From Somniosus microcephalus (taxonomy: Eukaryota), in the NCBI GenBank assembly GCA_052327205.1, contig CM126203.1:322090001-322154000 (forward strand): a stretch of DNA of 64,000 bases. The letters run 5' to 3'. A program made the position numbers and the translations under genes. Below are positions 950 through 45,597 of the stretch, in pieces. Numbering within the stretch: position 1 is the stretch's first letter; each line of letters opens with the position of its first letter. Below the pieces are notes generated by a model, which saw only the letters and a list, made by a program, of their open reading frames with translations, ran no database searches and was not told where the DNA came from.

Positions 950-1095
950 TCTGAGAAACAAAGCTGACGAAGGGTCATCGACCTGAAACGTTAGCTCTGT
1001 TTCTCTCTCCACAGATGCTGCCTGACCTGCTGAGTATTTCCAGCATTTTCTGTTTTTAGATCAGATTTCCAGCATCTGCAGTATTTTGCTTTTGA
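950..1095 (+). mobile_element. Penelope-like element terminal repeat with minimal hammerhead motif
   Basis: CTGACGA-A-GGGTC-ATC-GACCT-GAAAC-GTT followed by the family tail ctctccacagatgctgcctgacctgctgagtatttccagcattttctg. Confidence 0.7.
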
Positions 1096-1978: not shown

Positions 1979-1989
1979 AACATCTACTA

Positions 1990-3099
1990 CTTCGATAGCA
2001 AAATACTGCAGATGCTGGAAATCCAAAATAACAACAGAAAATGCTGGAAAAACTCAGCAGGCCAGGCAACATCCGTGGAGAGAAATAGAATCAATGGGGT
2101 CAATTTTCCTGAAGCCGTCAGGCGGGGTTTCAGGCATGTGGGGGGGGGGGAAATCCCGATTTTGGGGGTCCCGACACCATCCCGTCCAAAACCCGCCTCC
2201 ACGTAAGTTTCAGGGGAGGCGGGTACCCGCCCCGCACTGGGACCCGCCGACCCGAGGCGGGAAGGGATTAGTGCCAATTAACTGCCTGTTAACAGGTAGT
2301 TAACAGGCAGTTTTTAGCCGAATCCCTATTTTGAGGGGTGTCGTGTGGGATTCCCGACGGCTCCAAACCACGCCAGGTTAGAGCAGGCGGGCCCTCGGGT
2401 TGAAGGACTTGGAGGGGTCGCGATGTCGGTGTTCAGGTGAGTGATGGGCGCATGAGTGCAAAGGTAAGTGTGTTTGGTGTGTCTAAAGTGTGTAAAGAAG
2501 TTTAAATTACTTGTACTTACCTTAACAGCCTTTCTTCCTCCAGGCATCGGGAGTCCATCACTCAGCCGGCACTGAAAGCAAAATGGCTGCGAGCTGTCAA
2601 AAGTGACAGCCTTCAACTTTCATTGCCGGTGAGACTTCTAGCTGAGTCTGTGTAGAAGGACTCAGGTTAGAAGTCAGACTGTCAGTGTTTGACAGATGAA
2701 ATTTCAGTCTGTGACGTCACCTGTTGCTGGGTGGCCCTTAATTGGCCTGCTGAGCCCGTTGGGCGGGCTTAACAAGATCAATCAAGGGAAAATCACGTGG
2801 ATTGGCCGAATGTCGACGTAGGCGGGACTAAAACCCGAAAGTTGTAGTCCCGCTTCCTTCCCGACAGCTTTATGAAAATCTACCCCAATGTTTCAGGTCG
2901 AAACCCTTTATCAAGACTGAAGAAGCACAGGAAATGATCAGATTAAAAGACCAGTTTGGGGACTGGTCTTTTAATCTGATCATTTCCTGTGCTTCTTCAG
3001 TCTTGACAAAGGGTTTCGACCTGAAACGTTGACTTTATTTCTCTCTCCACGGATGTTGCCTGGCCTGCTGAGTTTTTCTAGCATTTTCTGTTGTTATTT
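1990..3099. mobile_element. Palindromic (inverted) Penelope-derived insertion with an 11-bp TSD
   Basis: Arms ~2026-2095 plus 2890-2955 versus 2962-3099 are near-perfect inverted repeats around a 6-nt loop TTGGGG. Flanked by aacatctacta (1979-1989) and aacatcaacta (3100-3110). Confidence 0.75.
2096..2886. mobile_element. Non-autonomous DNA transposon (PIF/Harbinger-like MITE)
   Basis: Imperfect TIRs GGGGTCAATTTTCCTGAAGCCGTC / GGGGTAGATTTTCATAAAGCTGTC; 3-bp TSD AAT at 2093-2095 and 2887-2889; GC- and CpG-rich interior. Confidence 0.8.
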
Positions 3100-3414
3100 A
3101 ACATCAACTATTTGTCAGGTCAATTTCTTAATATATCCAAAGCCCTTTGTTATTGTTCCATTTTATTTACAACCCCCAGTCTGGTCTCATCAGAAAACTT
3201 AGCCAGTTTTGTTTATTAGACTCAACTAACTTTTCCTCCTTTTGTTTTGCTTTAACCTGAGAGGCGGTCCCTGGTTTTAGATTTTCTGTGTGATCTGTCT
3301 AACCAGAACTGAGTATTTCATGGAAACTTCTGTTATAGGAGGAAACAAACCATCACTTTTCTCCCCTCCCCTCCCGAAGGCTGATTCACCCTGCCAAATA
3401 GTTCAACGGCTCCT

Positions 3415-11568: not shown

Positions 11569-11861
11569 TCATGCTTTGGTACAAGTGCTTGAGGTCGACG
11601 ATGAAGCGCCTGGGCTCGACATGGCTTCGTCCTGCCATTTGTCCAAGCTTCGCCTCCGGGCGTTCATAAAGAAATTACTGACGGTGGTCAACTCCAGACC
11701 GAGCTGTTGCGAGATTGTGATCTGCATCTCCTTGGAAGGGCGCTTATTTTCCTTGAAAATGGCGAAAAGAGTTCGGCGTTGGAGGTCAGTGAAAACTAGC
11801 CGTGGCTTCTTTGGTGTATTGCTCTTCTCTTTGTTCTGTTCTTGTTCTTTGCGTTTGCACG
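11569..11861 (-). CDS. ONECUT2: ONECUT2 coding exon 2: divergent homeodomain and stop
   Basis: Polypyrimidine tract and CAG acceptor at 11864-11862; G|CG restores ..LRLAACKRKEQE..KKPRLVFTDLQRRTLFAIFKENKRPSKEMQITISQQLGLELTTVSNFFMNARRRS..TCTKA*. F48/M50 are ONECUT-type. 1102+293=1395 nt, 464 aa. Confidence 0.97.
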
Positions 11862-12169
11862 CTGGGAAGGAAAAGAAAAAAAATAATAATATTGAGGATT
11901 TATAGAAACGGGCTGACGTTATCCTCGTCTGCACAATATCGAATCTTGCTTAAAATATCACTTTGTTTTACCTGAGGTTTCGAGTTACTGGACGTGGGGT
12001 CGGGGGGGGGGGGGGAAAATCAGCTGATGGCAATAAATGTGGAGCTGAGCAGTGTTCTAACCGATTAATTACAGAACACGCCTACACTAAAACAAAACCT
12101 GACCAATAAAATTGTGCAATAATTACTTCACGTTCGTTCTCTGTGTATTTTATTTTCATCTTGTATGTA

Positions 12170-13903
12170 TGTAAGAAAAAGAAAGGAATAGGCCATTTGG
12201 TTCCTCGTGCCTGCTCCGCCATTCAATAAGATCATGGCTGATCTTCTAGCTCATCTCCACTTTCCTGCACTATCCCCATATCCCTTGATTCCCTTAATAT
12301 TCAAAAATCTATCGATCTCTGTCTTGAATATAATTAACAATTGAGCCTCCACAGCCTTCTGGGGTAGAGAATTCCAAAGATTCACCACCCTCTGAGTGAA
12401 GAAATTTCTCCTCATCTCAGTCCTAAATGGCCGGCCCCTTATTCTGAGACTGTGACCCCTGGTTCTAGACTCCCCAGCCAGGGGAAACATCCTCCCTGTA
12501 TCTATCCTGTCAAGTCCTGTAAGAATTTTGTATGTTTCAATGAGATCACCTCTCATTCTTCTAAACTCCAGAGAATATAGGCCTAGTCTACTCAATCTCT
12601 CCTCATAGGACAATCCCCCCATCCCAGGAATCAGTCTGGTGAACCTTTGTTGCACTCCCTCTATGGCAACTATATCCTTCCTTAGGTAAGGAGACCAAAA
12701 CTGTACACAATACTCCAGGTGAGGTCTCACTAGGGCCCTATATAATTGTAGTAAGACATCTTTACTCTTATACTCAAATCCTCTTGTAATAAAGACCAAC
12801 ATACCATTTGCTTTTCCAATTGCTTGCTGTGCCTGCATGTTAACTTTCAGTGATTCGTGTACAAGGACACCGAGGTCCCTCTGAACACCAACATTTCCCA
12901 ATCTCTCACCATTTAAAAAATACTCTGCTTTTCTATTTTTCCTACCAAAGTGGATAACTTCACATTTCTCCACAATATATTCCATTTGCCATGTTCTTGC
13001 CCACTCACTTAGCCTGTCTATTTCCCCTTGAAGCCTTTCTGCATCCTCCTCACAACTTACATTCCCACCCAGCTTTGTATCATCAGCAAACTTGAATATA
13101 TTACATTTGGTCCCCTCATCCAAATCATTGACGTAGATTGTGAATAGCTGAGGCCCAAGCACTGATCCTTGCGGTATCCCACTAGTTACAGCCTGCCAAC
13201 CCGAAAATGACCCATTTATTCCTACTCACTGTTTTCTGTTCATTAACCAATCTTCAATCTATGCTAGTATATTACTCCCAATCCCATGAGCCCTAATTTT
13301 GTTTAATAACCTCTTGTGTGGCACCTTATCGAAAGCCTTCTGAAAATCCAAATACACCACATCCACTGGTTCTCCCTTATCTATTCTGCTAGTTACAACC
13401 TCAAAAAACTCTAACAGATTTGTCAAACATGATTTCCCTTTCATAAATCCGTGTTGACTCTGCCCAATCCTATTATTATTTTCTAAGTGCCCTGTTACCA
13501 CGTCCTTAATAATAGATTCTAGCATTTTCCCTACTACTGATGTCAGGCTAACTGGTCTGTGGTTCCCCGTTTTCTCTCTCCCTCCTTTCTTAAATAGTGG
13601 GGTTACATTTGCTAACTTCCAATCTGCAGGAACCGTTCTAGAATCTATGGAATTTTGGAAAATGACAACCAATGTATCCACTATCTCAATAGCCACCTCT
13701 TTCAAATCCATAAGATGTAGGCTATCAGGTCCAGGGGAATTATTGGTTTTCAGTCCCATTAATTTCTCCAGTACTATTTTTTCTAATTTCTTTCAGTTCC
13801 TTATTCTCGCTAGACCCTTGGTTCTCCACTATTTCTGGGAAGTTTTTTGTATCTTCTTCCATGAAGACAGACACAAAGTATTTGTTTAATTTCTCTGCCA
13901 TTT
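12170..13903 (-). mobile_element. 5'-truncated CR1 LINE (RT to 3'UTR) in the ONECUT2 intron, sense to the gene
   Basis: ORF fragments with RPVSLTSVVGK, YLDFQKAFDKVPH, FADD, RTRGHSL..RNFFTQRVV; CR1 3'UTR (gatcagccatgatc..gaatggcggagcagg). Confidence 0.95.
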
Positions 13904-14977
13904 GTGTGCCCTCTGGTACTCTAACCATTATTAATGTGTAAGCATTAACATTGGTCGGCTTTTCCACCATGGGTACACCCTCTTCTTCCCTGATGCCCAT
14001 GTGTATAATTTCCAAGAATCACTGGATAGCTACCGTGAACGGGTAACTTGTCTGCCTCCACCGCCGCCCCACATCTCCGCTAGCTCTGGTAGGGTCCAGT
14101 TAATGTTTTGAACCCAGGGGATACGTGGATCAGATCCTCTAATTTCCAAAAATTTTTTAGATGACCGATCTCTTTGAACAAAAGGTTGACCTTAATTGGG
14201 CTGCAGTATACCAGCTACTGACTGGGTGTCTGCATCACTGGGAAGTCAAGTGGTGTCATGTGAAAACGCTGGCTCCCATCTGCTGGGATTGCACATTCTT
14301 GGATATGGGCCAATAAGATGTACGAAACATACGAAAATGACAGACAGGAAAATACCAGCTGGTCCATCAAGCCTGCTCCACACTCATGATGGCTGGAGCA
14401 TCATGACTCGGCACTTCCTAACCCCGTTGCAGCCAAGTATCCCGAGAGAGGAGGAAGAAAAACCAGAGAGTGTCTTAGATGGGATCCGGAGTCTGATCCG
14501 GATCAGCAGCAGAGGCTTTACAACCTCTTGGGTTTGGAATGGGTAAAATAATTTGGCGTTCCTGTTCCTCTACACCGACTTCTGCCGGGGAGAGTTTGCG
14601 GTAAGGCTTATCTTCTGCTGTGTCCTGGTCGAATGGCACAAATGGGCGCACACTGACGGTGCTTACGGGTGCAGAATGGCGACTTGAACCAAGCAGCCAG
14701 CGCTTATTTAAATATGTTCCAGCATTACGCAACGCTTTCAGAAGAGGAATGGAGAAAGTAGGGGGAAGTGAATTGTTTTGAAGGGTATTTCTGTACCTAT
14801 TCCAATTCACCTTAACAACAATCAGATATAATATAGACTTAATGCACAACAGACCAGACTATCTTTTTTTTATGAAGCTATGAGCAACTGAGATGCCATC
14901 ACCATCTTTTTACAAATACAGTTTCACAGCGCCCTGTGGATCAGCTATTTTCCGGGGTCCGGACACTCCTCGAGGAC

Positions 14978-14994
14978 CTGTCCACGGTGCTGAA
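14978..14994 (-). promoter_or_regulatory. RE1/NRSE (REST binding site) in the ONECUT2 intron
   Basis: Reverse complement TTCAGCACCGTGGACAG matches the canonical TTCAGCACCnnGGACAG core exactly. Confidence 0.75.
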
Positions 14995-15188
14995 CTGACA
15001 GCTGTAATTGGGAGCAATTGTTCGTTTTATCTCTTCCTTTTTTCTGAAATTGTGTTAACAGTACATATATCTTTCCACGCTGTATGTTAAATACCATATC
15101 TGTGAAGCTTCCAGAAAACGTAATTACTATTGATTTTTAATGTTAGAAAAGTAATATTTTATTGCCCCCGCGATGTGTCAAGGGTCTC

Positions 15189-15207
15189 TGGCCAGAAGAT
15201 GGCAGTG
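15189..15207 (+). promoter_or_regulatory. Candidate CTCF site
   Basis: TGGCCAGAAGATGGCAGTG versus consensus TGGCCASYAGRKGGCRS. Confidence 0.5.
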
Positions 15208-16189
15208 TTGTACACGCAATTCTCTGGGACAGCGCTGTGTCCCGCTGCAAGCGAAACTGATCTCAGATAAACTGTAGAATAACTACAAAAGCTTATTCTA
15301 TCACTAATGATTGACAAGCACTATGAATAATCAACCGAGGATCAAGGGGCCGCCTCAGATGTTATCGTCATTACTAATAAACCACGAAGATGGGGAAGGT
15401 AATAACACACAAATCCTTACTGCAGTTTCCCACCGAAACCGCACTTGAAAAATGTAAAAGCAGGACTTGAATGACTAATCGCCATGAATAATATAGATGA
15501 ATATCATAAATACGGTCGAGCGGCCTCTATAAGCATTGACTTCCGTCTAATGTTATCACTTTACCCGAACCTCGACTGAACTGAATTTCAATGAAGAATA
15601 TAAATGCATTGTGCTGCATCAAATTAGGCAATGTTATTTTTTAAGAATATGATTAACTAAAAGAAGAATTGTATCAGTATCCATACATTAGGAATGTCAA
15701 CACTGGTCGGCTAATCAAGATGGTTATCGGCTCTTGGTTATTGATCAACTCCACGAGTAAAGTTCGGCGATGGCGTAACTCCAATTAGTCAATAAGTTAT
15801 TCCGAACATGATCCGATGGCAGTGAGTAAATATTAGAGGTAATTATTATTCAACATGGGCGGGCCTCGAAAATCAGCTACTGCCATCACTGATAGACTAA
15901 ACTGCACTGACAGTAGCAGAAAGCAGGGGCTATCTGTAGGTTATGTGTGCTAGTTAGCAACATTTATCCAACTCGTTAATGAACACAAGTTGTCGCCGTA
16001 TGAATTGCACAAGCTGACTATCGTGGACAGCAGACAGGAACGAATACAATGCCACAGCTCTGTGTCCTCAGTGATTGTGTGTGTGTGTTAGAGAAAACAA
16101 TCTCCTTTATCGGCCATTTTTAAGCTCTCTTCCTCCTCTTCTGAATGCATTGATTCCTGACTTGGGTACAGTGTCATGATATCATTCGC

Positions 16190-16470
16190 CCTCCTGGTAT
16201 CTCAATCTTCATGTTTGAGCCTGCAGATATTCCCCATTGGATGGCATCAGTGCTGTGCTCAATCCTGTCCTTGCCCAGCATCCACACTTCCAGCAAGGGG
16301 CACTGGGTAGTGATGAAGAACGGCAACATTGGCCGAATTTTTTTTTTTCAAACTCAAGGGCACTGAAGTCAACCGTAGCTTCAGTGCTGCGGCCTCAGCC
16401 GAGAAACAGCTAACTCAGCACAGATCCCCGGGATGGAGACTCGGGTCGGCCTGCTCTCTACTGCACACCA
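16190..16470 (-). mobile_element. Old SINE copy (same family as 3415-3722)
   Basis: Shared blocks catccacac..ttccagca and cagctaactcagcacaga. Confidence 0.5.
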
Positions 16471-19400
16471 GGTTAGCCTCGGCAATTAGGTTTAATCTAT
16501 TGGTATGAACACTTTTATTTTATTTTATTTTTAAAGCAGATCCATTGCAGTAGATATTTAAGAGTGGAATTAAAGATGAAATCCTTCCAAAGATCCTTCA
16601 AGCTGGGGTCTGGAGACTATGATTGGAGAAAGTTGTGAAAGATTTCCTAGTGGTGGCGATTTCTGCACTCCCCAATTATCACAATGAATGTAAATTACTG
16701 TCTTGCAAAGGTCAAGCACTGCTGTTCGTAATTTAAACTGTCAAACAGGATTTTGTTTGCGGGTGAAGAAAAATTCACCAAAAAAAATGCAACGGGACGA
16801 GGCGGGGATGGGAAGCGGGGCTTAATTCTGTCGCGGGCTTGCAATATCTTTTCAAAGCTCTCAAAGAGCCTGAGATTTCAAGGCTTTATTTTTTTTTTAA
16901 AACTCAGGACATTTTGGACTTGACCCGGGACAATTCTCTCCGGGAAAACTAATGTCAGGACTGGGCTCTGACCCTTTCGGGGTCCATCCATTAAATTGCT
17001 GATCTCAGTGGCGGCAAACAAGCGTGCCAACAACTTCAATAGCTTGCACTGCCTCACAGAAAGACCCCCAGTGTCACAATAAAGTAGCTGTTGATGGCCG
17101 CTCCTCTAATCCAAAGATCTGAACCCAAACGAAAAATAAAGCCACGCGTATGTAGCCAGTTTCCAAAACAAACTGAACCGTCTGTCATGTCAACAAGCAG
17201 CATGAACACGAATGCTAATAAAAAGATAGCTCGTGTTACGCCATCGAATTAATCAGTTAATCAATCAGTCAGTCGATTAATTATACACTTTAGCTGTCAG
17301 ACACCAGCTCTTCGCGTATCGGGATGAGATTTTACAAGACCTGGTTTTAGTTTTACTCATACTTCCGCGCGAGCGTAATGCTAAATACGACATTAAAAAT
17401 AGTTTGCTGCGTTTTATTTTATTTCTCAGTTGAAACTCTAGTCTTTTCAAGCACAGACACGAACCCCGGCCGGGCACAATGCCCAGCACACATTCGCAGA
17501 GATTGACTATCAGATATTAACTAATATCTAACCTTTGGAAATCAGGTGAGGAGGTCACGTATTATTTCTATGAAATAATTTTGCAATTTTTACAATTGAA
17601 CCCCCTCCCTCCCCCTCCCACCCCAACCCGGAAAGATGCACCGATGTGACAGCGCCTATCATTAGAATGTGATTTAATTCGATGTGAATGACAAAATATG
17701 TTTGCAAATGTCTTTTTAGTCGACCGGAACAAATTAAACACAAATATTTGCAATTGTTGGGCTCCAATTGCTGTTGGAATGTCTGGCGCTTTTAAACATA
17801 TCCTACAGCCATAACAAGGATCTCGTTTATTTTAAAAAAAACAACCACCCTGTTCCCTGCATTATTTGTTTGGAAGGTGTTTGAGTAAAGTTGTCTATAA
17901 GTCAAATTCTGCAACATTTTCACCATTGGTATTATTCCATTACATTTATATTCTGAACTTGTTTATTTACTTTGGCTTTCTGCATATTTTAAACAGTTTC
18001 ACTCAAATTGAGAATCGGTGTTCGGAAACGCAGCATCCTGCTATTGCCATCCTTTATTTCCATCCCTCTATTCCGGATTATATGTTTTTAAATGATTTAT
18101 AATACATGTAACGCAGTTACGCAAATCGCTGAGTACAACTGCAGTAAACCAGTATCAACACACGCCAGTGGCATAACATGCATACCCAGTACGGGTAGCG
18201 AGCACACATTTCTCAGTCAGACTCAACAGTCAAAAAGTCAATCTGATGACGCTGTTTAAACGCTAATTACATCCACTAATGTGGCGATTAATTAATCTTG
18301 CTTCCTAACTAGGCCTAGTGCCTGCACAATCCACCCTGTGCACTAGAATAACAAGACAGTAAAGGGTTTAAAACACGGACGTCATGACTATATATATATA
18401 TAAATATACATATAGAGAGAGAGCAATCTGCATATGCCAGTGTGAAAGCAGTAATTCCTGCAATTTCTCCAACAATTTGCAACCATAGAAACATGTTGCA
18501 AATGAATCAATTAGCCGGCACCATCGCTGAACCTTGCCCTTTGAACTCAGTAGCAGACTAATAAACCCATTAACTCGCACAGTGCTCCTTAAATTGTTTT
18601 TATGTTCTGTTTTTAAAAAACCAAATGCCGTTTATTCACGAAATAGACCAGAGAGACACAATGTTTACTTTAGTGGGATTGTTTGGGTGGACGGTTTAGT
18701 TGGGGGGAAATGTCAGATCTTGAGTCGTTTACGCTTTAACCGTAAACAAAAACAAGGCCCCGTCTATTACACTCGGCCTGACACCTTCCAACAAGCCACA
18801 GCATTTACAAAAAATGATCGCTAGGGATTTTAATTACTAGGCATTTTTTTTTAAATTCACCTTATTTATCTAAAACTGGTGAAGCGGTTGTAGGCTCCTA
18901 TTCAGACGGTGTGGCTGTGCTCAGGCACACTGCTGGAGGAGTGGTAATCCCCGAGCCTGAGATGTGATTGGTGAGAGCATTTTGCTGCAGCCACATCCAG
19001 TCCAGGTTAAACAACGAGATCGCCTCCCATTTTGACATTATTAGTTCGTAAAATTGTTCGAATTCTGTCAGTTTGATGAGGTTCGTTTGTGACAACACCA
19101 CGTCAAAGACCCAAGGAAAATAAAGACTTACAAAATGCGCTGACAATACTGTTGTAATAAAAATAGGATTTGTATGTATAATTAATATGCTAACTTTTAA
19201 AATATTACAAATAACACACGGTACCTGTTATTTTTATCCCGTCCGCCCGCACGTTTTCTTCTAATCCAAAGTGCAAAACACCAATCCTTCAACGTTTAAA
19301 AATCCCACCGGCGAATGAATAGGGTTTCAGTTCGCTACCTGCCCTCGGTCTGTAAGAGCGGCACAGCCGTCGCTTTTTTTTCGTCAGACCACTTGTCCAA

Positions 19401-20519
19401 TTTGTGTCTAGCTCTCTAAGTCTGTCTGTGATATGGCCATATCTGTCTTTCCTCTTCATCTGCATCGGTCCTCTCGCTTTCTGTCTCTATCTATGAGATC
19501 TCTGTAGTTCTCTCCCCTTCTTCGTCTCTTGGTCTTTTCAGTGTATGTATTTGCAAGATATGTTCTGCCTTGCTCGGTTATCTTGTACATTCATTCTAAC
19601 CTGCTATTATAGGAGGGAGGGGGGTTTCAATGTCGTTTTGCTGTTGCATAACTATCTAACCATACGTGAGTTCAGAAGACGAGGGTTGCAAAACCACGCA
19701 TCCCATTAGGATTACAAATGAAAAAATCAATAATGGCTTCTAATTACCTGTGAAGTTAAACAGCGCAGGCTGGGATCATCACAGACGCCCCCGTCCTCTC
19801 TCTCTCTCTCACTCGCTCTTTTTAATGTTCAAGAACTGCATGTATTTGTAATTCGAATCAAACCTCTGTTGGGTTTTCCTACCGATAGGTCAAACTAACT
19901 AGGCAGATACGAAACTTTATGGCCGTCACATTCTTATTTGAATAAGTGGAACAAAAGAAAAAGAAACCAGGACCCTCCGAACCGATGATACCAAATTTAC
20001 ACAAAGCAGTTGTGTTTACATTAAACTCCATTCATCTTGCTTGACTTTAAAGCAACCAGCGTCAAGCGGTATATGGTCATTAATACAAACAGGGTTTTCA
20101 CTGTGTAAGATGACTTTTCCACAATGTTTAAATAGAGAAATAGTAAGTATTAAGTATTTGATCACGTATTCTTCATCCACGTCTTATTGGAACGTATTTC
20201 GTAAACAGAAATCATTAAAACATTATATCTAAATACATCTTTATGTATATATTTCACCTATATTTGATCTAGGCACATAGCTATAGGCGACCTATAAAAT
20301 GTCTGGCATTATAGTAAAGTTTGCGGACATAATTAACAGACGTGAGTGCTCGGTTTTAGCTCTGATATTTCTGCTGACTGCATCGCCGCTTTAAGTTCTA
20401 AATTATTCGCCTGTTAGATTTCCCTCGACTAAAAGTGATGAAGATAAGTTTAAAATGAATACAAGTTAGTAACTAAATGCTGCGTTTCCATTATTCTTTT
20501 ACTAAAATATACGGCAAAT

Positions 20520-20900
20520 AATAGAAATGTGCCTGTCTATTAAATATGTAATATATACAACGTATGCTAGTATGTTACATATAGAATATTAAACTATAAT
20601 GTGCACATACACTATATGTTCCATCATAATGTATGGATGTTAACTAACGGATAGCGCATATATGTGTTTATCCTGCCTGTAATCTGTACTATTCACAGTG
20701 TGCACGATATATGATTGAATAGCCTATGATTTAATGATTATACTATATATACTGTGTATTATATAAATGCTGTATATTATCTATAATGCATATTGATTGC
20801 AACTGACATACACAGTATACGACTCATAATACATGTCTATAATCTACAATGTATATAGAATTAATATAAAGTAAAATAATATAAAGATTATACGTATTAA
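20520..20900. repeat. AT-rich TA/ATAT low-complexity tract
   Basis: Decayed (TA)n/(TATAC) composition. Confidence 0.6.
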
Positions 20901-23900
20901 GAATGCTACAACTTCAGCAGCAAAGCATATTAGGACGGTGCGTATATTGGTGCATTGCCCTATCCTCAAAAACCTTGTGGTAATGACGCCCCTCTGTCAT
21001 TGTCTGCCCTGTGCCTCCTGCTTGTAGAACACTTGTTTTAGGTGTTCTTGTATTTCCCAGCAATAACAAATCGAATGACAATACAGTATTAAAAAGAACA
21101 GCATCCGGGTAAACAGTAAATCTATGCAAGAGCTTCTTTAAACGTGCGGTTTCCTTAAAGGGAAAGGCTGGATCAATGCGATCGATGGCGAAGGTTTTCC
21201 CTATTCCTATATCAAATGAATGTCGTTGCTGATAAAACCTCAAACGGGGAGCTTCACTGGGCCACTTCTCCATTGTTTTTTACTCGGGTTGTGACAAAAT
21301 GAAAATCGATGTCAGCGAGTCACTAACACCACAAATAAAACAAAGGCTTGTTTGCACTGACCCGCGGTCGGAGAGAGCAAAGTTCTTTGTGATAGAGCTC
21401 TTGGAAAGAAGAAGAAAAAAGGAGAACGCGGCGCTCCGTCCAATAACCCAAGGAGGATTGATATTCAGAAACACGTTTCGCTAGCAAATTCGAAATTAAG
21501 AAATAAACAAACGGTAGAAAACAGCAACATTCAGAACGAGCAGGAGCGTGGGGGATAAGAACATTTTTTTTACTTGTATGCGGCATAAATCAACCCTGAA
21601 AAGATTGTCAAATTTGTCAGAATAAACACGAGAGCTGATCCTTATCAAGAAATTCTCAATGTCAAGGATAGAACTGAATTTTACAGGGGGAGCTGCAATA
21701 TCTTAAATCACTTACAGTGCAAAGATTGTGATAGTCACGGCGATGATAAGGGCGTCACTCCACGCTACACTAACAGTATTTATTATGGGATTCTATTGTA
21801 TTGTTTTTTAATATAATTTTTATTTAGGATTATATTTTAATTATATATCCTTAAAAGGACGTTGTGCACAAAGAGAGAGAGAGGCCACCAATTGTGTGTA
21901 AGTCAAGCTGTGGAGTTCTATTAGACCAGAGTTAAGAAACTAATCTTAAACATGAGCAAAATACCGGCACCATGTACATTGCACTCGGCTGTTTTCTCAG
22001 ATTGTGTTACATGTCCTTGTGAGAAGGGAAGATCCCAGGAGAACAATAAATATCGATATACAATTATGTTATTAAAATTTGTATATAATGTATAGCCCAC
22101 ATGTATAACGTTTGACGTCGCTCCGCTCCTCGTACTTAAATAACCCCCAAACACTGCAGCGAAATAATCTTTGTAAAAAAAATCTGCGCCGTATCTGAAC
22201 AGATACATTTTATGTTTGCGAATTGAGCTTTAGTTATATGATTTTAAAATGTATAAATAATTTTCCAAACGTGGTCTCCTTGTACATTTTACTCTTTAAC
22301 ATTTAAATTTTATATATTTTGCAGATTCATCGAGGTTTCCCGAAGAAGATACAATACAATTATTTGTATTTTGTGACAAATTAATATATTTGGTACAGAA
22401 CATGATGGTGTTAAATGTTAGAAAGAATGTCAAACAATTAGAAAGCGCTTTGTACTGAAAGAATGAACACAGCGCCAGCATTTACAGTACTGCCTGGCTA
22501 ACGAAATATGAATCATTCACACAGTTATGTTTAAAATGTTTAAAAAAGAAAATAGCTGCAAATATAATAAATAAGGAACAATGGATTATATTTTCCAAAA
22601 CTTGGGGCTACCGGTGTGGGTGCTATAATTACGATCTGAGCTCAACTAACATACATAGAATCTGTGACGATCAAGTACGGTTAGGTTCGTATTAAGTGGG
22701 TTGCTAAAACAAATACTATTCAAGTCAAAATAATGTCTATTGTAAATGTTGAATCTAACAGCAAAATATTCAATTGCCAGGAGATTGACGATTTCTATTG
22801 TATCTGTGAAAATAATCAGAAAGATGTACTCGAGCCTACGCTGAGATTTCGGCACCAATTTTAAATGGTAATTGCATTCAACAGCACTTGGAAGCTGTAA
22901 CTGTATTCAGTATTATAGGATGATGATGGGAGGGCAGCGTCTGCCCCCTCCCCCTCCCCCGCACTGGAACATAATCTCTTCCTACACTGCCGTTGATTCC
23001 TAATGATACCTATTTCGAGGTCCCTGAAGAGTGTGTGATTAATGCTTAAAGGCAAGAAGTTTTTTTAACTGACGGTCTTTTACATCAGAGACACGTCTGA
23101 ATCTGCATTTAAACAAGGATGTTGGAATGCAGCCGTCACCGTGCTGAAGCGTCGAACGTACGCCGTGCCGGCGAGGTTTACACACGCCAGATACCCAATC
23201 GTTTTGAATTGCAATTTGCTGCGCTAATTGGGTTCCTGTCACTTAACACGCGGTCTCTGGTATGCGTATTAAGTTTTCCACCTAGATAAGTCCATATATA
23301 TATATTAGTATCCCAGACGGAAACAGTAAATAATCATCTTGGCGGTTTTTGTTTGTGGACAATACTGGGGCATTGATTCTAACTTTAATGAATTAATTTG
23401 AGTTAAAGTGGAATACTGTATCTGAGGTCACATGTCAGTATCATTGTCGGCTCTTAATAAGATCAACATAGTCTCGCAAAAGAAAAATAACTTATCAGTA
23501 AGACTCTGATTCAAGGACATTAAAAAAAAATACGTCAATTTCCTGTGTCATTTGTGTGTTACATGTTGACAAACTTACTTTAAGAATGTTTTGGAGGAAC
23601 TCTTTAAACCGTAATCTACCCACATCAGCAAAATGAACAATAACACCGTTACATCTTTGGTCATAATGCAAAAAGGGAAAAAAATCGATAATAAAATATA
23701 GTACTACTGTTAAAAAAAAACACGTGAGCTATCATTGTCATGGGCTGTGAACTAAATGTCTTTAAAATGGTAGCGAGGAGGGAACTCAAACTACCAGGAG
23801 ACAAAGGGAAGATAATGTGGACGACAATGCCGGGAAGACTATGGCAGCTTTACTGGAACAACGTCGGATCAGGTTTCAAATCAATGTCTAACCGGGTCCT

Positions 23901-26560
23901 TAGGTTTATGTTATTGTTGCCAGCATTAATGCCCTTTTAATCTTCTAAAGATTATCCTCATCGATCCACGTCCATATACACAGATTTTTTTATATAGTGA
24001 CATAACCACATTATTTAAATACTGTGATCAAAATAAATGCCACTGTTTCATTTCTTTCCTTCCACTCTCACCACCGCCCCCCCCCCCCCCCCCCGCCCCA
24101 ATATATCTTTCCTTGCCCTCAGTGCTCTCAGGAATCCTCTTCTATTAATGAACAGTAGGAAGGTGTTACTCTCTCACACAAGGGGCTGCCAGAGGCAAAC
24201 ATCAGGTGCGGGAGGGTTTCAATTATTAATTTGCCAATTGCAGCAACAACAACTAACAACTGATCCGAGTGACTGGAAATAAAACTCCGGGATTAACAGA
24301 GACACGCTGGTGTCGGTATGGCAGCGAATTTATTGGTTTTACAGATGGCATTCGGCATTCAGACGCTCTTGCATCTCTAGAAGCGATTCCTTTTTATTTA
24401 TCATTCTATCCAAGTGGGCGTTCTAAATATAAATCATTTATGGAGCCGGCGCGAGAGAGAAAGATACTGGTTGACAAGGCTATCAGCTCCAGCGGCGAAT
24501 GAGTCCCCAGATTTTGCCTGGTTAAAACCGAGGCAAGGGTGACGTTGCAGCAAGCAACCGGTCATGCAGAGATTGCCATTAATAATTCATATCTGCGGCT
24601 TCTGGGCTTCTTTTCAAAGCACTGCCAGTAAGCATATTATATCTTCAGACAAAATAAAGAAAGAGAATCCAGCTACGGCACATTTAAAAAAAAATCTTTT
24701 TAACAAATAAAATGTTTCAAAAATTAGCAATATAGTTCACACCAGAAAACCCACACTGTACTCGCCTCAAGTGGTTGGATGAAATGTTGTTGTCCTTCTG
24801 GTCTTTAAAAAAAAAATCTCCTGGTCTGTATTTAGCTGGAGTTAATAAGGTGTTGTAAGAATATATACCTTCCGAAATCATGCTGTAGCGCGTGCGGTAC
24901 GAATCTCTGAAGTCATTTTCCGCAGCAGTGATGGGGTAATGCACAGGGCCCGCATAATGGGTTGATTTATATAAAACAGATAATTTTTTCAATGTTTACT
25001 TTATTGCCAAGGTTGTTCTTTTTTGTGCATTGTGTTTGTAAATACCAAATCAGCTGGGCAATAAACAGTTTAATTATTCAAATCAGAATTGATCGCCTAC
25101 CTGAGGGATGTGGGGTGAAATTCATTGATAATAGTGCAATCAAATAAAAAATGCATTAAATGCAAACACCAAATTATAACATCATTTTTTTTTTCCTGTC
25201 AGCCTGCTTGTGTGGCTTTGCTTGCGTTTTGAATTTTGTTGAATCAGCAATCATTTACTGTCAGCTTTTACCGAAAATACAGTCATGAACATAATGTTAT
25301 AGATACAGGGACAGACAAACAGACGGATAGACGGGGTGACTATTTCAAGGCCGTTATCAAAATGTCTCTTCCACCTCTTTCAGGTCAGCAGCTCAGCTGA
25401 ATTCAGAAGCTAATGGCTACAAGACGATTCAGATAGGCCTACTCTGATCATCACCTATATCGATTGAATAGATTTAATTCTAGTACGGTTGTACCCGCGA
25501 ACTTGGCAACCTGTGATCTCAAATATTTCAACATGTTTTGTATTTTCTGGCATGGTGACATGATTTAAAATAATTGCATTTTTTTTCATATCTGTTGCAA
25601 CCCCAGAAATGAAAAGCAATCAAATTGCTTATAATTTTAAGAATTTTGATTTCCTAATCAATCTGGAAGTTGTGTGATAAGTGAAAACATAAATGTAGAG
25701 AAAAAAATTAAAGAATGTTAGCGAAATACACGCAGTCGGTTACGACATACACGATGTGCACCGCGTTTTTTGTGGCGCACTGTATAAGGATAGAGTTTCT
25801 CCACTAAATGCAGGGAAAAGCCAAGTTTAATTGAAAGAAGTAATTACAGCAATTACAACACATGGCCGTGGTTTACAACATCGTCCCTGATTTGTTTAAG
25901 CGGATAATGACAGCAGTGATGAAAACATTGTATATAATAAATGGTGCTGATATTTTCACTTAAAGCAAACACAACACAAAGTTTATATTTGCATGTTAAA
26001 ATAAATGCGAAATATCGTACAAACCCGAGCTATATTATTCCTCTAATCTATACTGGTAATTCAATGAAATATAGCCACGTATCACTGATTGCCCCAACGA
26101 GCGAAAAAAAATATTTATCTCCTCCAAATCTACATATTTACGAGCGAGTTCACGTTACGTAGTCAAATAAAGATATCGAATCGAATTAGACATTGTAATA
26201 GATGTTGCTTCCATTGTCCTTTTGAGGTACGAAGGTTAAATGATGGCTCTCGGCGCCGTATGGATTTGAACAGTTACCTATTTGCCAAGGAATGCAAGAG
26301 TATTTTTCCATATATATTGAAATAAAATGCGCTCTCCCAATGTGATCAAATATTACTTTCACTTATTTGTCTTGTAGGGTAGAATTCCATAATCGCGCCT
26401 ACTGGGTATTAAAGAAGATTTAAGAGCAATGCATTGAACAGTCTTTCAAAAATGGCAATGTTAATTACATTATATTAAATAGTCCCCAACTGCAGACAAA
26501 TAAAATTCTATGCGTCCAAACACACACAATAGGGATGAGCTCGGATTTGAGGGACCAACA

Positions 26561-26577
26561 CGGCCGCTAGAGGGCGG
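26561..26577 (+). promoter_or_regulatory. Candidate CTCF site
   Basis: CGGCCGCTAGAGGGCGG, a close match to the CTCF core, ~1 kb inside the ONECUT2 intron. Confidence 0.55.
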
Positions 26578-27612
26578 AAACGCAATTCCTCCGATTTCCC
26601 AATCCCACTGCCAACCACCGAAGCTCGTTCTCAATCGTTGCGATTCACCACAACAAAACGATCGTTTACTTATAGCACTGCACTAGTCTTACCTATTCGT
26701 TTAAATACACGCAAAACAGCTCAAGGCTTGTCACTCGGCACCCTACAACACTGTGAAAAGCGTAAAACACTGTATATGTTTTCTCTTTGATTCACATATT
26801 ATACGGACTAAGCAGAACAACAAAAAGCGGTGGCAGAATTCTGTTTAAAAAAAAATAACGGCGTTGTAGATGAAGAACCCGAGAACTAACCGAGTGCTGC
26901 AGACTTAACAGAAATCGGTCGAATTGCTTCTGTCCGATGCAGAGCTGGCATGAGCAAGTGCGGACAACAATAGTCCGATTTTTAGCCCTTACAGATCTCT
27001 AGCAGGGGGGCTGAAGTTAACGTTAGTAAAGGGAATTACTGTGCTACAAAGGAGACAAAAAAAAAGCAGTTCAGAGTCTGACATGGGTTAAACAGGCTGG
27101 CAGCACGTAGGATTCTGGATAGTGCAACTGCGAATGTGTTGATGGTCATCAAGCAAGGGGGGTGGGGAAGCATTTGAACACTGCATTCTTAAATGGGTTT
27201 TTAAGGTACATTAATTGAATGGTAATCAGATGTTGATGCCGTTCCACGTTACGATTGTGGGTGTGTCATTTCATTGAGGGAATAGTGAATTGTCTTCTGA
27301 TGGAGCTATTGTGCGAGCACTGGACTAAGGGGAACCCTGAAGGAGCGCTGCGGTGGGTGGAATGGGGAAAAACAGAAAAATACGCGGGTCTCCCCGCAAT
27401 ACTGGCACGGGTGCATCTAACCACAAAGAAAGGCAGTTTCTATTGAATATTCTCTTGGCGATGAATTAGAGCACAGCAAATAACAATTGCAATGATTTTT
27501 GGTTGTTTTGCACGGTTATTGTGAGTTTATCCCCCCCTCCCACATCACATACGAATGCACTACCAATTCCCTCTTCACAGTCTCAACGTGCGAGCATTAT
27601 CCCCTGGCTTAC

Positions 27613-28714
27613 CTGCGAGCCTTAAGGCTGACATTCTCTGGAACTCAGGCTCTTGAAGCCATTTCCACATCCGCCTGAAGGTCTCCCGTCCCGATTTAAG
27701 TTTACTCCAAGGTTTGGGGTTCCTTAAAAGGTCAGAGAGGGTTCCCTGTGAGCGGCACAGCACCCTTTGAGCGAAGATGGCCTGTGGGATGCTGTAGCGT
27801 TTGAGTTCCGCCGTGATCCTTTGTGCTACTTCTTTGGTATTAATCTCTTCCAGCTGGCCCGAGCTGTTAGCCTGCGAGCCCGAGGAGGAGGGAGGCCGAT
27901 CCCGGCTTGAAGCCAACACGGGCCCGTGAGATTGATGGTGACTTGAGTGACCGTGGTGGTGGTGATGCATGCCGTTCAAGTGTGGCATCATGCCCGCCGA
28001 CGGGGCTCCAAGACCCCGAGACAGGTGCTGGTCCCCTCTGGCCAGCATAGCCGTGTGAGCTTCGAAGTTGGGGCTGAGCATCTTGTCGTGGCTGTTGGAG
28101 CCGTAGCCCTGGATGCCCTGATGGGTGTTGTGAATGGAGCCCAGGCCGTTTCCCAAAGGGTTGCTGGACAGAGGGGAGAGGTTTTGAGTCATCCCGGGCA
28201 TGTCCTTGTGGTACGGGTTGTAGAGATTGTTCATGGCAGCAGGCAAGCCCCTTTCGTCCCGCATCAGGGTAAAGCTCCCGCTAACGTTGCCCGCCAGCCG
28301 CTGGTGGTGGTGATGGTGGTGGTGGTGGTGATGGTGAGGATGGTGGAACTTATCCGAGACGGTGGAGATGGGAGGCAGGGGCTGGAGTGGCGTTAGTGTG
28401 GTGTAGGTGCTGCTCATGCCCATGCCAGGTGGAGACTCGCAGGACATGCTCATGGCCGGATGGAGAGGGATAGAGAGCTCCGGACGGTAGTCCCCAGTCC
28501 CATCCAGAATGGAAGCCATACTGGACACCATTGCAGATCTGGTCGTCAGTTCCCGATGAGCTGCTGAAACTGCCTGCCGCTGGTGACTGTTCATCAGATC
28601 GCCCGTGGATTGCTCATGGCCTATTCCACCATGCAAATTCCCAATGCTGTCCATTGTAATCTCCGGGTTCATGCCATATACCTCTTTGGCTATACATCTA
28701 TACGCGTTGTTCAT
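27613..28714 (-). CDS. ONECUT2: ONECUT2 (one cut homeobox 2) coding exon 1: N-terminal region, TP box, poly-His tracts and CUT domain
   Basis: Translation MNNAYRC..MNPEITMDS..YTTLTPLQPLPPISTVSDKFHH..EEINTKEVAQRITAELKRYSIPQAIFAQRVLCRSQGTLSDLLRNPKPWSKLKSGRETFRRMWKWLQEPEFQRMSALRLA. The N-terminal AYRC extension and position next to ST8SIA3 favour ONECUT2 over ONECUT1/3. Donor GTAAG follows at 27612-27608 (phase 1, exon 1102 nt). Confidence 0.96.
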
Positions 28715-31820: not shown

Positions 31821-32234
31821 CCGTGTAGTATGTTATGTAAAGTGATCCGAAACAGGGTGACGATTATAGACCGAGAACAAACATGTGGTTAAAACCCAGT
31901 AGATCTCCGATGCGTTTAACATTAGCTCTCAGCTCGCCGTATTTATTGTTGGCAACCTAACTTTACATTGCTTAGTTTGTTAGCTTGCAAGTTAAATCCT
32001 ACTTCGATATGAAGTGAAAAATTAGCATACGGTCAATGAGGTTCGATTTGTTTAAATAATCAATCCATAAAATGAAAAGAGTTCCCTGTATGTTGGCTAT
32101 AGGTTTACCGATAAAGCACAAACACTGCCGAATTGTTTCCAGCGATTGTCCGAACTGTTTTAATTGCTTCGAATACAAAGTTCTGCTTAATTAACATTTA
32201 GCAAACAGTGGTAAAATATAGAAAAGAGAAAACG

Positions 32235-32352
32235 GTAAATGCGGAAATCTGAAATAAAAGCTGGAAATGCTGGGCATACCCAGCAGGCCAGTCAACATCT
32301 GAAAGGGAGAAAATAGGTTCATGTTTCAGGTGGGTCGCTTCAACCATCAGAG
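32235..32352 (-). mobile_element. Degraded Penelope-derived repeat
   Basis: ggaaatctgaaataaaagctggaaatgctgg..cagcagg..atgtttcagg. Confidence 0.5.
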
Positions 32353-38071: not shown

Positions 38072-38172
38072 GTAATAACAACAGAAAATGCTGGAAAAAC
38101 TCAGCAAGTCAGGCAACATCCGTGGAGAGAAATTTGAGTTGACGTTTCGGGTTTGACCCTTCTTCAAAAGTT
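38072..38172 (-). mobile_element. Penelope-derived repeat with hammerhead-like motif
   Basis: Near-identical to 45235-45330; reverse complement TTGAAGA-A-GGGT-CAA-ACCC-GAAAC-GTC-AACT. Confidence 0.7.
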
Positions 38173-41651: not shown

Positions 41652-41937
41652 TTAAGAGGCACAATGTGAAAGAGTCAGTTTAGTCAAGCCGTCAGTGTGT
41701 AGTTTGAACAACAGCTTGAATTCTGCTGGAAGCTGATGGGACTCTTGCCATTTGGTCGTGAATTTTGTCCCCTTTTTGTCATAGTAGTGATATGGCAATT
41801 CTTTTCCTGTGTTGGGATCCCACGCGAAAGGCCAAAATCCGTACAAGTGAATCTCTTCGCAAATGGCAGAAGCCAATGTATACATCAGGATGCCTGTACT
41901 TAGGCGCTTTGGCGACAGCTGTTTAGTTTTCCAATAT
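41652..41937 (-). CDS. ST8SIA3: ST8SIA3 exon 4: sialylmotifs S, III and VS, and stop
   Basis: aacag acceptor; YWKTKQLSPKRLSTGILMYTLASAICEEIHLYGFWP..HYYD..HQLPAEF..LSHCAS*. Total CDS 1146 nt = 381 aa. Confidence 0.96.
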
Positions 41938-43434
41938 CTGTTCAACGGTAAAACAACAAAAAGTTCACAAAATATTTTTTCAATTAAGAAACATCGATCT
42001 ACCGTGGATTTTCTCACGAAGAGCACCCCCCCTTCCTGCAACTGTCTCTACTTCTCTCCGACTCTATTCTTTCTCTCAGACATTCTTTCAATCTATCTTC
42101 CACTCTTTGCCCGTCTCTCCAGTGCTTTCTCTTCGTGTATCTCGGAATCTACTATTTTTCACTCTTCTCCCTTTGTGTGAGTTTCTCCTAGCCTGCCTCC
42201 CATCTTCTGCATTCTTACATTCTCAGTATGTCTACAACGCCGATTATTTCCACATGGCTTTCTCTATACGAATCATTTCTCTCTTTCTCTTTATCCTTTT
42301 CTTAATATTTGACACTCCCACATTTTCCTATCGCCCGTCATGGAGGCATGGAAACAGATTGGAATTCCAAACCTCTGATAGCTGTAGATGTAATATTCTC
42401 CCTCTCTCATCTTGTCTTCATGTGTCCGTGTGATGCAGTGGGATAGATGTGGACATGGTTTGGGAAGGAGTGGAAAGCCAGAATCTGAGGCTGGGGCTCG
42501 GGTTAAGAGACTGAGGGAAGGGGGTCCTAAGTAAATACAAATTATTGCATAAGCATAATTTTGAATCCAATATTACAAATTATTCTACAAATTTACAACA
42601 GATGAATGATTTGACTATTACTAATTCGTTGAATAAATATTCAATAGTTGAATGATTCGAATATTCAGAACTGAAACTGTCGGAGAGAGAATGGGGAACT
42701 CAGGTGTTCTACGGGCGGTGGCTTGTGCCTGGGAAACAAAGTCGAGCCTGTCCCGGGTAGCAGAGCAGAAGCAGGTCTCGCTCTTTGAAATGGAGGATAG
42801 CCGGTGAGTCCAGGAGAGTGAAGATACCGGGACCTCATAAGATGCTCAGGCTATCTGGAGTGTGTAGGAAACAGCAAGAGGGCGGGGAGAATGTCGCCGG
42901 TGGTCCAAGGCAGACTGGCAAACAGGCGAAAGAGGGAACGTGTACCCGAGGCCGGGAATGTTCATGAGGCCACACTGGACCATGTGGGAAAAGATTGGAA
43001 GATGAAATGCGTTTTATGTGTTCGTTTGTGATTATTTTTAGAATTGTTTATGGTGCGTACTAAGTTATACATTTCACTTTTAGAGGTATACATGGGTCCA
43101 ATAAGGAATTACGATGGCGGCTGTGTCTGTGGCCTTTTGGTCAATCTGCGAGGGGGAGAAAATTTAAATTTCGGAGAAATTTGTTTGGAGAATGCAAAGG
43201 TAGCCAATCAATTTGAAAGGAGGAAAGTAAAGTCATGCAACCAACGAGGAACAATACAGTCGACAAACGAAGAAGAAAATCGACAGGTTAAATGGCCACA
43301 ACACAGTTTTTAAAACCATAAAGATATGTATATATATGCAATTAAGACTATAACTGGCATAACTATTGTGCACCATCTTATGAATATTTATATAAATGGC
43401 ACGTAAAAAAAATCCTTGAGCCTTACATACTTAC

Positions 43435-43992
43435 TTATTGATATGTTGCATTATGTTCCCAGGCCAAGCCAACTGGATCTTCAGTTGCGCTCTATACTCC
43501 ATAAAAAAATCTACCAAAGTTCTTGTCACCGGAGCAGAGGTGTGGAAGAAAAAAGCAGGGATCCAAAGAATGGCTCCATCAAGCTTTTTAAGATTCAGGA
43601 AAAACTTATTCCGATCTTGGATGGTTAATAGATTGTTGTAGTACTTTTCAAGGATGCTCGGGTTGAAGGTCGTGAGATTCGTTTTTTTCCCAACATCTTC
43701 TTCAAAAGTTTCAGTTGGCGCGAAATTGCAGCGGAACACGAAATCGGACTTATCTATTTCAGCTCCACAACCGCTTCCTGTTAGGATTCCACTGTTCCCA
43801 ACAACCGCACAAATGTTGTAGTGCATCTTTAATATCGGGGGCGCCTCGGGGAGCAATGATCGAAAACTAGTGCTTACAGAAAAAACGTATTTGTGGTTGG
43901 AATAGTCATAGTGCAGCAACTGTCCCACTCGCACGCTTTTCTTCACCAATGTGAAATTTTTAAAAACGTCGACATAGCGACTGATGTCCTTT
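43435..43992 (-). CDS. ST8SIA3: ST8SIA3 exon 3: sialylmotif L
   Basis: ttcag acceptor; KDISRYVDVFKNFTLVKKSVRVGQ..CAVVGNSGILTGSGCGAEIDKSDFVFRCNFAPT..WPGNIMQHIN; gtaagt donor; 558 nt. Confidence 0.96.
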
Positions 43993-44523
43993 CTGAAGCA
44001 AAAATACAGAGAACGAGTTAGGTCAGTTCCTTCTCAGCAATGGGTTTGAATTCAGAACACGTACTTATAAGAGCGCAGTAAAAGCATTCCCAGTAAAAAC
44101 AGGTTGTGCTAAAACGACAAGGTCTAAACTTGTAGGGAAAAAAATCGAACCAAGAAGGGCCATTGAGAAGGAAAACATATCCTAATGATTAAAACGTTTG
44201 CTTTTGAGAAGCTGTAACTTTGAAATTGGGCTCTATGCCCATTACTGATATCACGTAATCCCAGTCCATTGAGACACATCCCATTGAGATTCTGTTGGTC
44301 ATCGCTGAAGTTATTTTGTTTAATTCGTGACACCCATCTCTAATAGTGATATCACTTTTTGTTCTACATATTAAAAACCGTACCAGGGCTCTGACTTTAT
44401 TTGAAAGCTCCCCCTTTTATGGTAAGGATGTACTTTGCAGAGATAAAAACAAAAACATCGGAAAATATGGAATAAAGATGAAAGAAGTTCTCGCCCCTTT
44501 CTTTACTTTGCAGAATGACTTAC

Positions 44524-44646: not shown

Positions 44647-44691
44647 CTGCAAGAAAAATTGCCGTCAAGGTTTAATTAGAAGTGACGATTT

Positions 44692-45196: not shown

Positions 45197-45597
45197 GTTT
45201 GATAGCAAAATACTGCAGATGTTGGAAGTCCGAAATAACAACAGAAAATGCTGGAAAAACTCAGCAGGTCAGGCAACATCCGTGGAGAGAAATTTGAGTT
45301 GACGTTTCGGGTCGAACCCTTCTTCAAAACTGGAAAGAAAAGAAAATAGATCGAAGGCAAGGCTGCGATTGGACAAAAGAAGTGAAAGAGACAAAAGAAG
45401 TAGAAGAGACAATAAAAGGTATTCAAAGCCAGACGAGATGGTAATAGGCTGAGATTAGGTGTGAAGTGTACTGGCAGGGCAAGAGATAGCTGCCAAGTGG
45501 GAGAGTGAAACAAAAGGAAAGGGGGGGGGGCGGTGGGAGGAGTGGAAAAATTACAGGTAAAAAATTAATAGGGGCCGAGGTTATGATCTGAAATTGA
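45197..45597 (-). mobile_element. Penelope-like element 3' portion with hammerhead motif (ST8SIA3 intron 1, sense)
   Basis: The minus strand reads ..AAT TTC AGA TCA TAA (NFRS*, resembling the end of a PLE ORF), then a pyrimidine-rich UTR, the hammerhead-like motif at 45331-45297 and the family tail. Confidence 0.7.

Follow-up and report, generated by a model that had tools for sequence, protein, structure and literature searches.

A minimal hammerhead motif dispersed in the Somniosus microcephalus genome lies in the pLTR of an autonomous Penelope-like element

INTRODUCTION

Minimal hammerhead ribozymes are carried in the pLTRs of Penelope-like elements (PLEs), where an extra base, dimers, the U3-A8 variant and a circle model have been described (Cervera & De la Pena 2014, PMC4209133). 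Whether these hammerheads must cleave in vivo is an open question. In Poseidon of Anolis carolinensis (PAc), hammerhead cleavage is protein assisted and reverse transcription starts at two internal sites (Frangieh et al. 2024, PMC11167929). The hammerhead was not required in vitro in that study, in which no RNA ends were seen at the cut site.

A 36-base motif at 2999-3034 of a 64,000-nucleotide stretch of Somniosus microcephalus DNA (the window) reads as such a hammerhead. This raises the questions of which element the motif belongs to, whether its sequence is kept as a ribozyme, and whether the copy at this locus cuts anything. The initial annotation of the window had described four copies of a Penelope-derived repeat family and proposed that it spreads self-cleaving RNA motifs.

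RESULTS

Five copies of the motif in the window

We found all four annotated strings letter for letter, at 964 and 2999-3034 on the plus strand and at 45331-45297 and 38170 on the minus strand, and a fifth copy that had been overlooked at 2918-2887 (minus strand), in the inverted arm of the 2999 copy. The family features are listed here, with lineages A, B and C being those of the 964, 2999 and 45331/38170 types, respectively, and with family positions numbered from the first base of stem I (+1).

964..1093, plus strand: lineage A copy with a C3-G8 core and the long 3' end, beginning at the core
2999..3034, plus strand: minimal type I hammerhead motif of 36 bases, lineage B, U3-A8 core
32222..32331, minus strand: older, decayed family tail of 74% identity, the 5' half of its hammerhead gone
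38074..38169, minus strand: lineage C stub with a U3.G8 core and the short 3' end, truncated at +2
45201..45596, minus strand: lineage C copy with the final ORF codons, the 3' UTR, a U3.G8 hammerhead and the long tail

The 2999 copy has a 4-bp stem I, a U3-A8 core pair, an extra A between positions 9 and 10.1, a 4-bp stem II with G.U at 10.1-11.1, GAAA, the palindrome ACGU and a GUU triplet, after which (3030) cleavage is predicted. The type I layout assigned to all four annotated copies is complete at 2999-3034 and at 45331-45297 (U3.G8), where stem I is whole, and broken at the other two. Stem I is broken in the 5'-truncated 964 copy because that copy starts at the core, and there is a G/A mismatch at 1.1-2.1. 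The 38170 copy is truncated inside stem I, leaving two stem I pairs.

The 964 stub adjoins another short repeat, which has inverted copies (82%) at 913-972 and 3198-3257, and sits at the end of one of them. An Rfam covariance-model scan of the window gave no hammerhead family match up to E 10, and its mir-16 match at 2911-3006 is the hairpin of the inverted repeat. We are nearly certain that the 36-base motif at 2999-3034 is a PLE hammerhead.

The motif is the pLTR hammerhead of an autonomous element

By walking upstream from close relatives of the window copies, we reached the parent ORF. RVT_1 and GIY-YIG matched the ORF upstream of a U3-A8 copy (locus L033) and of a C3-G8 copy, with Pfam scores mostly under the curated cut-offs and one GIY-YIG piece at the cut-off. 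At locus L282, an unbroken ORF of 955 aa lies between two U3.G8 hammerheads, its ATG 21 nt downstream of where the first of these is predicted to be cut; its matches to RVT_1 (E 3.5e-4) and GIY-YIG (E 1.3e-3) fall below the curated cut-offs. The hammerhead occurs once per unit of 3.13-3.21 kb; the preceding ORF stops about 250 nt upstream of it, and the next ATG follows 21-22 nt downstream. Partial tandems have units of 3,206 nt (L202) and of 3,133-3,155 nt (L282, L285 and L287, with pLTR identities of 132/133, 266/268 and 904/924); the pLTRs of the tandems are 98-99% identical. At L307:570-8584, three lineage C copies lie 4,007 bp apart with no ORF between them, which is a local tandem duplication.

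The parent ORF has a CX4CxxC linker before GIY-YIG and a CxxC inside GIY-YIG. A CX2-5CxxC linker in this place marks Neptune and Nematis (PMC8557442), and this linker motif, by which the clade is assigned, suggests that the element is likely of the Neptune type. The Penelope/Poseidon clade, in which the linker zinc finger is absent, was rejected because the ORF has the motif. We also found hallmarks of endonuclease-bearing (EN+) PLEs: a pLTR partial tandem, an inverted 5'-truncated copy and a one-sided tail of 30-40 bp.

The motif is the pLTR hammerhead of an autonomous EN+ PLE; what the window contains are truncated 3' ends of this element. The Penelope origin proposed in the initial annotation is thus borne out by the RT and GIY-YIG ORF upstream of the motif and by the partial tandems. 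Its repeat family is not a separate Penelope derivative; the repeat is the 3' end of the autonomous element itself.

Three lineages amplified in one genome

Degenerate patterns, one per lineage, had 28,473 (A), 3,301 (B) and 10,863 (C) exact matches in the 6.45-Gb genome, and the reversed-pattern control of each lineage had 0. Thousands of matches against none show that the motif is not due to chance. The repeat is very abundant, with a lower bound of 42,637 exact-pattern copies. Among 44 unselected stretches of 10 kb, 5 of which adjoin the window, we found 11 motif-bearing copies, which extrapolate to the order of 10^5.

Mean divergence of the tail from the lineage majority, outside CpG, was 7.0% in A, 2.0-2.6% in B and 1.4% in C. 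Lineage C also has the shortest terminal branches in a tree of 38 ORF-end segments, which sets it apart without ordering A and B and in which several rows are truncated, giving long branches. Lineage C is the youngest large lineage; its loop 2 exists in three versions, and its H17 is C. The upstream flank is only 35-77% identical between representative copies. Thirty loci were used purely as bystanders, since the query that drew them began with 263 nt of another repeat.

In lineage A, two acceptor-like polypyrimidine-CAG sites flank the ORF start (995-1012 and 1050-1066), and both read CGG in B and C. A conserved splice acceptor after the motif was rejected because its AG is GG in those two lineages.

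The tens of thousands of dispersed copies, that at 2999 included, are likely dead 5'-truncated by-products, and selection likely maintains the hammerhead in the small number of source elements.

Lineage changes keep the hammerhead pairs

The initial annotation had claimed covariation among the copies. In 61 distinct copies, 92.5% of pair cells pair, a value matched by 0 of 500 shuffles and well above slid controls (14-53%). The 1.1-2.1 pair reads UA in 27 copies, CG in 21 and UG in 4, and the 3-8 pair reads CG in 26, UA in 15 and UG in 15. These are the two pairs that change on both sides, and 187 of the 500 shuffles also reach two. The claim holds between lineages, whose changes preserve pairing, with a number of two-sided pairs that does not exceed shuffles. 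Since the copies share ancestry and a hammerhead-like pattern was used to parse them, they represent a handful of lineage-level events, not 61.

Lineages differ at 1.1-2.1, 10.1-11.1 and 3-8 by pair-keeping changes only. The 10.1-11.1 pair is G-C in lineage C, G.U in most of B, and A-U or G.U in A; in the published alignment, G10.1-C11.1 is highly conserved and not universal (PMC4209133). Nine positions (U4, G5, A6, A9, G12, A13, A14, A15.1 and U16.1) have one majority base throughout all five groups, whereas variation is seen in loop 2, at N7 and at H17 (U or C). An extra A at 9.1 is found in all parsed copies, and 15.2-16.2 is palindromic (ACGU). Lineages B and C read through the motif in different frames, which rules out coding constraint.

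The minimum-energy fold of the isolated 36-mer from 2999 consists of stems I and II. Its stability is like that of shuffles (z 0.17), and the folding energies of the isolated motifs showed nothing unusual against shuffles (z 0.17, 0.28 and -0.51). A z of -4.9 for the 964 copy was set aside as the product of a rod-like fold that pairs the core, which is not the hammerhead fold. For monomers of A, of B with C-G and of C, the predicted preference is for an "off" fold that pairs the core strand with the strand holding stem III and the cut site, and the predicted probability of the hammerhead fold is 0.002-0.05. Only U3-A8 copies favor the stem I and II fold (predicted probability 0.22-0.36).

U3-A8 copies form a true source sub-lineage

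A Watson-Crick 3-8 pair is present in the 2999 copy (U-A) and in lineage A (C-G), and absent from lineage C, including the copies at 45331 and 38170 (U.G). All three states had been noted in the initial annotation, which gave too little weight to U.G, the state of the youngest lineage: U3.G8 was found in 98 of the 100 lineage C matches listed (hand count). U3.G8 lowers hammerhead activity strongly.

Among the 3,301 lineage B copies, the 3-8 pair is C-G in 1,928, U-A in 901, U.G in 310 and, by subtraction, C/A in 162, with an odds ratio of 34.6 for the association of the two positions. We asked whether the U3-A8 copies could be the product of two independent decay events in dead copies (C to T, and CpG to CpA) and no subfamily at all. 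G8 does lie in a CpG, and mispaired C3/A8 copies do arise by decay: they make up 162 of the 2,090 C3 copies of lineage B (7.8%), a level that resembles that of A8 in lineage A (C3 in 100 of 100 matches listed and A8 in 8 of these, hand count) and so points to CpG decay. In 6 inverted pairs, moreover, one arm is U.G and the other is U-A. However, the other-strand decay product TTGATGA was found in 9 of 100 U.G matches listed (hand count), a rate at which about 28 U-A copies are expected genome-wide, not 901; thus U-A is not decay of U.G. An upstream deletion, scored in lineage B copies long enough to show it, is present in 34/38 U-A, 8/24 U.G, 1/45 C-G and 0/3 C/A copies, and its linkage to U3-A8 (Fisher p 1e-17) is also left unexplained by decay. 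So are the 10 inverted pairs in which both arms are U-A and the RT-EN body that U-A copies have of their own. We regard decay as vanishingly improbable. U3-A8 is a true source sub-lineage, as the annotation had proposed, and it was likely reached through U.G, an order that we infer.

The six arm-discordant lineage B pairs (L097/L115, L123, L127, L128, L134 and L008; also L090/L114) exceed what CpG decay of 8-9% predicts, and lineage C pairs agree in their loop 2 version. Discordant arms could reflect two templates per insertion or mixed tandem sources.

Ends of insertions

The 3' ends are bimodal, with a near group at +97 to +101 and a far group at +130 to +136; in inverted insertions, the far end lies at +130 to +134. 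The loci examined held 65 inverted pairs, of which 7 that continue into the ORF were set aside. The remaining 58 comprise 55 long-plus-short and 3 short-plus-short pairs, and none that is long plus long. A target duplication of 13-15 bp (mode, 14 bp) was found in 42 of 57 pairs (56 of the 58, without L018 and L333, plus that of the window) at a score cut-off of 9, compared with 1/228 in a mismatched-flank control.

A pile of 5' ends, comprising 11/111 lineage C and 18/133 lineage B copies, surrounds the front edge of stem I (from -5 to +5). Poisson p values for C and B are 1.6e-5 and 1e-10 against the upstream rate and 0.008 and 6e-7 against the downstream rate. No such pile was seen at the cut site, where 3 of 111 lineage C copies end at +31 to +33 (p 0.13); part of the loci had been picked by whole-motif patterns, so that ends inside the motif are thinned out. 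All 8 full-length copies extend 26-825 nt upstream of the front edge and are longer than one unit, which argues that their templates were circular or tandem. Read-through of tandem sources explains these longer-than-unit copies equally well.

An inverted insertion surrounds the 2999 copy

The segment 1993-3099 is a single inverted Penelope insertion with two arms and a 14-bp target duplication, laid out as follows.

1979..1992, plus strand: left target-site duplication, 14 bp
1993..2095, minus strand: remainder of the inverted arm, with the 3' strand of stem I, the ORF start and the long 3' tail (to about +133)
2096..2886, no strand assigned: 791-bp MITE with 13-bp terminal inverted repeats and a 3-bp target duplication
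2887..2955, minus strand: 5' part of the inverted arm, with the second U3-A8 hammerhead (2918-2887)
2962..3099, plus strand: forward arm, pLTR -37 to +101, with the near (short) 3' end
3100..3113, plus strand: right target-site duplication, 14 bp

The two duplications differ at 2 positions, giving a score of 8, just below the cut-off of 9. Inverted arm segment 2887-2955 is 97% complementary to 2962-3031, and the stem III palindrome of its hammerhead has decayed. The MITE, which we take to be PIF/Harbinger-like, splits the inverted arm exactly at the cut triplet of that hammerhead. Among about 373 tail copies examined, the motif is a hot spot for a terminal-inverted-repeat family of about 800 bp, with 6 insertions at the cut triplet (2096-2886 in the window; L003, L008, L053, L089 and L206) and 2 seven bases beyond it (L093 and L110). 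The hot spot likely reflects a DNA target preference.

The segment 2886-3034 is predicted to fold as a single hairpin (149 nt, -123 kcal/mol) that engulfs the 2999 motif. Two neighboring genes are encoded on the minus strand.

27575..28714, minus strand: CUT-domain exon of an ONECUT-type gene
43431..44033, minus strand: exon of a family-29 sialyltransferase gene (other exons near 50286, 44639 and 41906)

The CUT-homeobox gene (11570-28714) has a 16-kb intron and a homeodomain exon that ends near 11570, and the 2999 insertion lies about 8.5 kb beyond its stop codon. Since this gene is on the minus strand, the 2999 motif is antisense to it, and the sense motif at 2918 is broken. Because the 2999 copy has no partner in cis, is antisense to the host gene and is sequestered in the hairpin, we predict that it is inactive: a truncated stub, locked in a long hairpin, that likely cuts nothing. 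The spread of motifs that the annotation described is borne out for the sequence motif only, and single copies are without a stem III partner.

Could window copies have been co-opted to cut or tune host RNA, in the 3' region of the ONECUT-type gene or in the sialyltransferase intron? The 45331 copy, with its whole stem I, is in the sense orientation in the first intron of the sialyltransferase gene (41720-50330), and the 2999 insertion is downstream of a transcription factor gene. However, the 2999 and 964 copies are antisense and the sense arm at 2918 is broken by the MITE; the window copies are young (95-99% identity to dispersed copies) and decaying; and single minimal hammerheads showed no cleavage (PMC4209133). 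Co-option is therefore a very improbable reading.

We assume that the two genes are ONECUT2 and ST8SIA3, whose neighborhood is presumably found in other vertebrates. The window also contains a 1,004-aa open frame of a presumably CR1-like LINE at 59731-62745 (plus strand) with LINE fragments at 12184-13792, 47414-48946 and 53478-54466; two near-identical copies (94-97%) of a SINE-like repeat at 44697-44998 and 58785-59088; and a two-copy tandem of 100 bp at 57001-57196.

A proposed model with a circle and two-ended priming

We propose that the two hammerheads of a pLTR-ORF-pLTR transcript would pair through their palindromic ACGU stem III. The dimeric hammerheads would cut slowly, helped by the protein of the element, and the cut RNA would re-ligate to a unit-length circle, which the RT could copy beyond one full turn. 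The endonuclease would make a staggered double cut of 14 bp, and both 3' ends would prime reverse transcription at the two internal start sites. From C-G, the core pair may have passed through U.G to U-A in one branch, with U.G retained in the youngest lineage; its retention there would mean that only weak activity seems needed. We consider it probable that the motif is the pLTR hammerhead of an EN-bearing PLE, selected in its sources and used in this way. For cleavage in vivo itself, our lean is a modest one in favor.

Another reading is that the hammerhead shape is kept but is selected as a promoter element and/or an RT-bound hairpin, the template being uncleaved, tandem read-through RNA. 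Hammerhead mutants left insertion unaffected in vitro (PMC11167929). Nearly all listed matches of the youngest lineage lack a Watson-Crick 3-8 pair. The pile of 5' ends at the stem I front edge fits as well: an initiator-like sequence (YYANWYY) is centered there in 117/121 B, 87/91 C and 28/37 A copies, with positions 1.1 and 3 as its last two pyrimidines. In a tract rich in pyrimidines, however, such a match is of low information. Promoter function would leave it unexplained that A8 tracks U3, that G/A at 2.1 tracks C/U at 1.1, and that the nine catalytic positions are fixed while loop 2, N7 and H17 drift; the deficit of C/A copies also opposes this reading. Full-length copies made from linear RNA that starts at the edge should begin there, and 0 of 8 do. 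We consider this reading unlikely, although it is the main rival.

In a further reading, with the balance still against it, such a start could be combined with the circle model: the RNA would start at the first base of the hammerhead, and cleavage would clip off a capped leader of 31-32 nt, the body being joined into a unit-length circle. Stubs would then derive from the uncut 5' end and full-length copies from circles, and the youngest lineage would do so with U3.G8. If this is true, the genome is a natural series (C-G, U.G and U-A) for the minimal in vivo ribozyme activity of Penelope.

In two raw RNA runs from other or unverified species, made from fragmented libraries that capture 5'-OH ends poorly, we found no pile of read ends at the cut site. 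These runs gave 10,534 and 12,623 element reads, on both strands and mostly from the tail. Five reads link the end of the tail to a point one base beyond the cut site; this joint may be a genomic tandem and was not counted.

DISCUSSION

Taken by itself, the flagged copy at 2999 is a routine case of an arrangement already in the literature. The wider family is relevant to the question of whether cleavage in vivo is required of Penelope hammerheads: ready-made constructs and predictions come from its three naturally amplified core states, from a young lineage in which the ORF is unbroken, from the mispairs that do not amplify, and from the end statistics.

Earlier publications already cover U3-A8, one-sided tails, the extra base and the presence of minimal hammerheads in Penelope pLTRs, and U3.G8 has appeared once in an alignment: one PLE motif, from Saccoglossus, has it in supplementary Fig. 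S3 of PMC4209133. Natural U3-A8 covariation has been reported (PMC3088659), the Penelope promoter has been placed in the pLTR (PMC2377424), and the one-sided tail is described qualitatively in the legend of Fig. 2 of PMC8557442. In the searchable parts of PMC4209133 and its supplement, we found no cartilaginous fish (shark, Callorhinchus or Leucoraja). A literature search on shark Penelope hammerheads, twin priming, start sites and U3.G8, with some key hammerhead papers outside its reach, turned up no report of this family or of amplification of a U3.G8 lineage. Hammerhead retrozymes have been reported from one chondrichthyan genome (bioRxiv 10.64898/2026.07.22.740005), so the supplement of that preprint may already contain this family.

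The non-LTR retrozymes of that preprint resemble our motif in that their hammerheads are of type I and related to those of PLE pLTRs. Retrozymes are, however, non-coding tandem repeats, while the window copies, which occur singly or inverted, are stubs from an element that codes for protein. Retrozyme identity was rejected on these grounds and because the tandem spacing of 3.13-3.21 kb contains an ORF.

As in PAc (PMC11167929), the hammerhead is at the pLTR-ORF junction, both target strands are used, and two internal 3' ends 30-40 nt apart lie inside the ORF start. The PAc ORF begins inside the hammerhead, whereas in this element 21-22 nt separate the cut site from the downstream ATG; and unlike PAc, a Poseidon, this element has the CX4CxxC linker of Neptune/Nematis. 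The insertions resemble canonical EN+ PLE insertions (Craig et al. 2021, PMC8557442; Schostak et al. 2008, PMC2377424) in their 5' truncation, partial tandems, inverted 5'-truncated copy and tail of 30-40 bp, often at one end only. Beyond those descriptions, the pairs are counted here (55/58 long plus short) and the target duplication is 13-15 bp.

The closest likeness is to the PLEs with minimal hammerheads (PMC4209133), which share the pLTR position, U-rich 5' flank, short stem I, extra base, GAAA-C-G-U-H, palindromic stem III and mostly single, dispersed copies with inverted pairs; the U3-A8 variant is shared with the Cercyon elements of Schistosoma. Unlike them, this family has a short stem II (4-5 bp) and A-U or G.U at 10.1-11.1 in lineages A and B, and its copy number is 5-10 times the largest counts given there. 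It also differs in that its three 3-8 states are separately amplified lineages within one genome.
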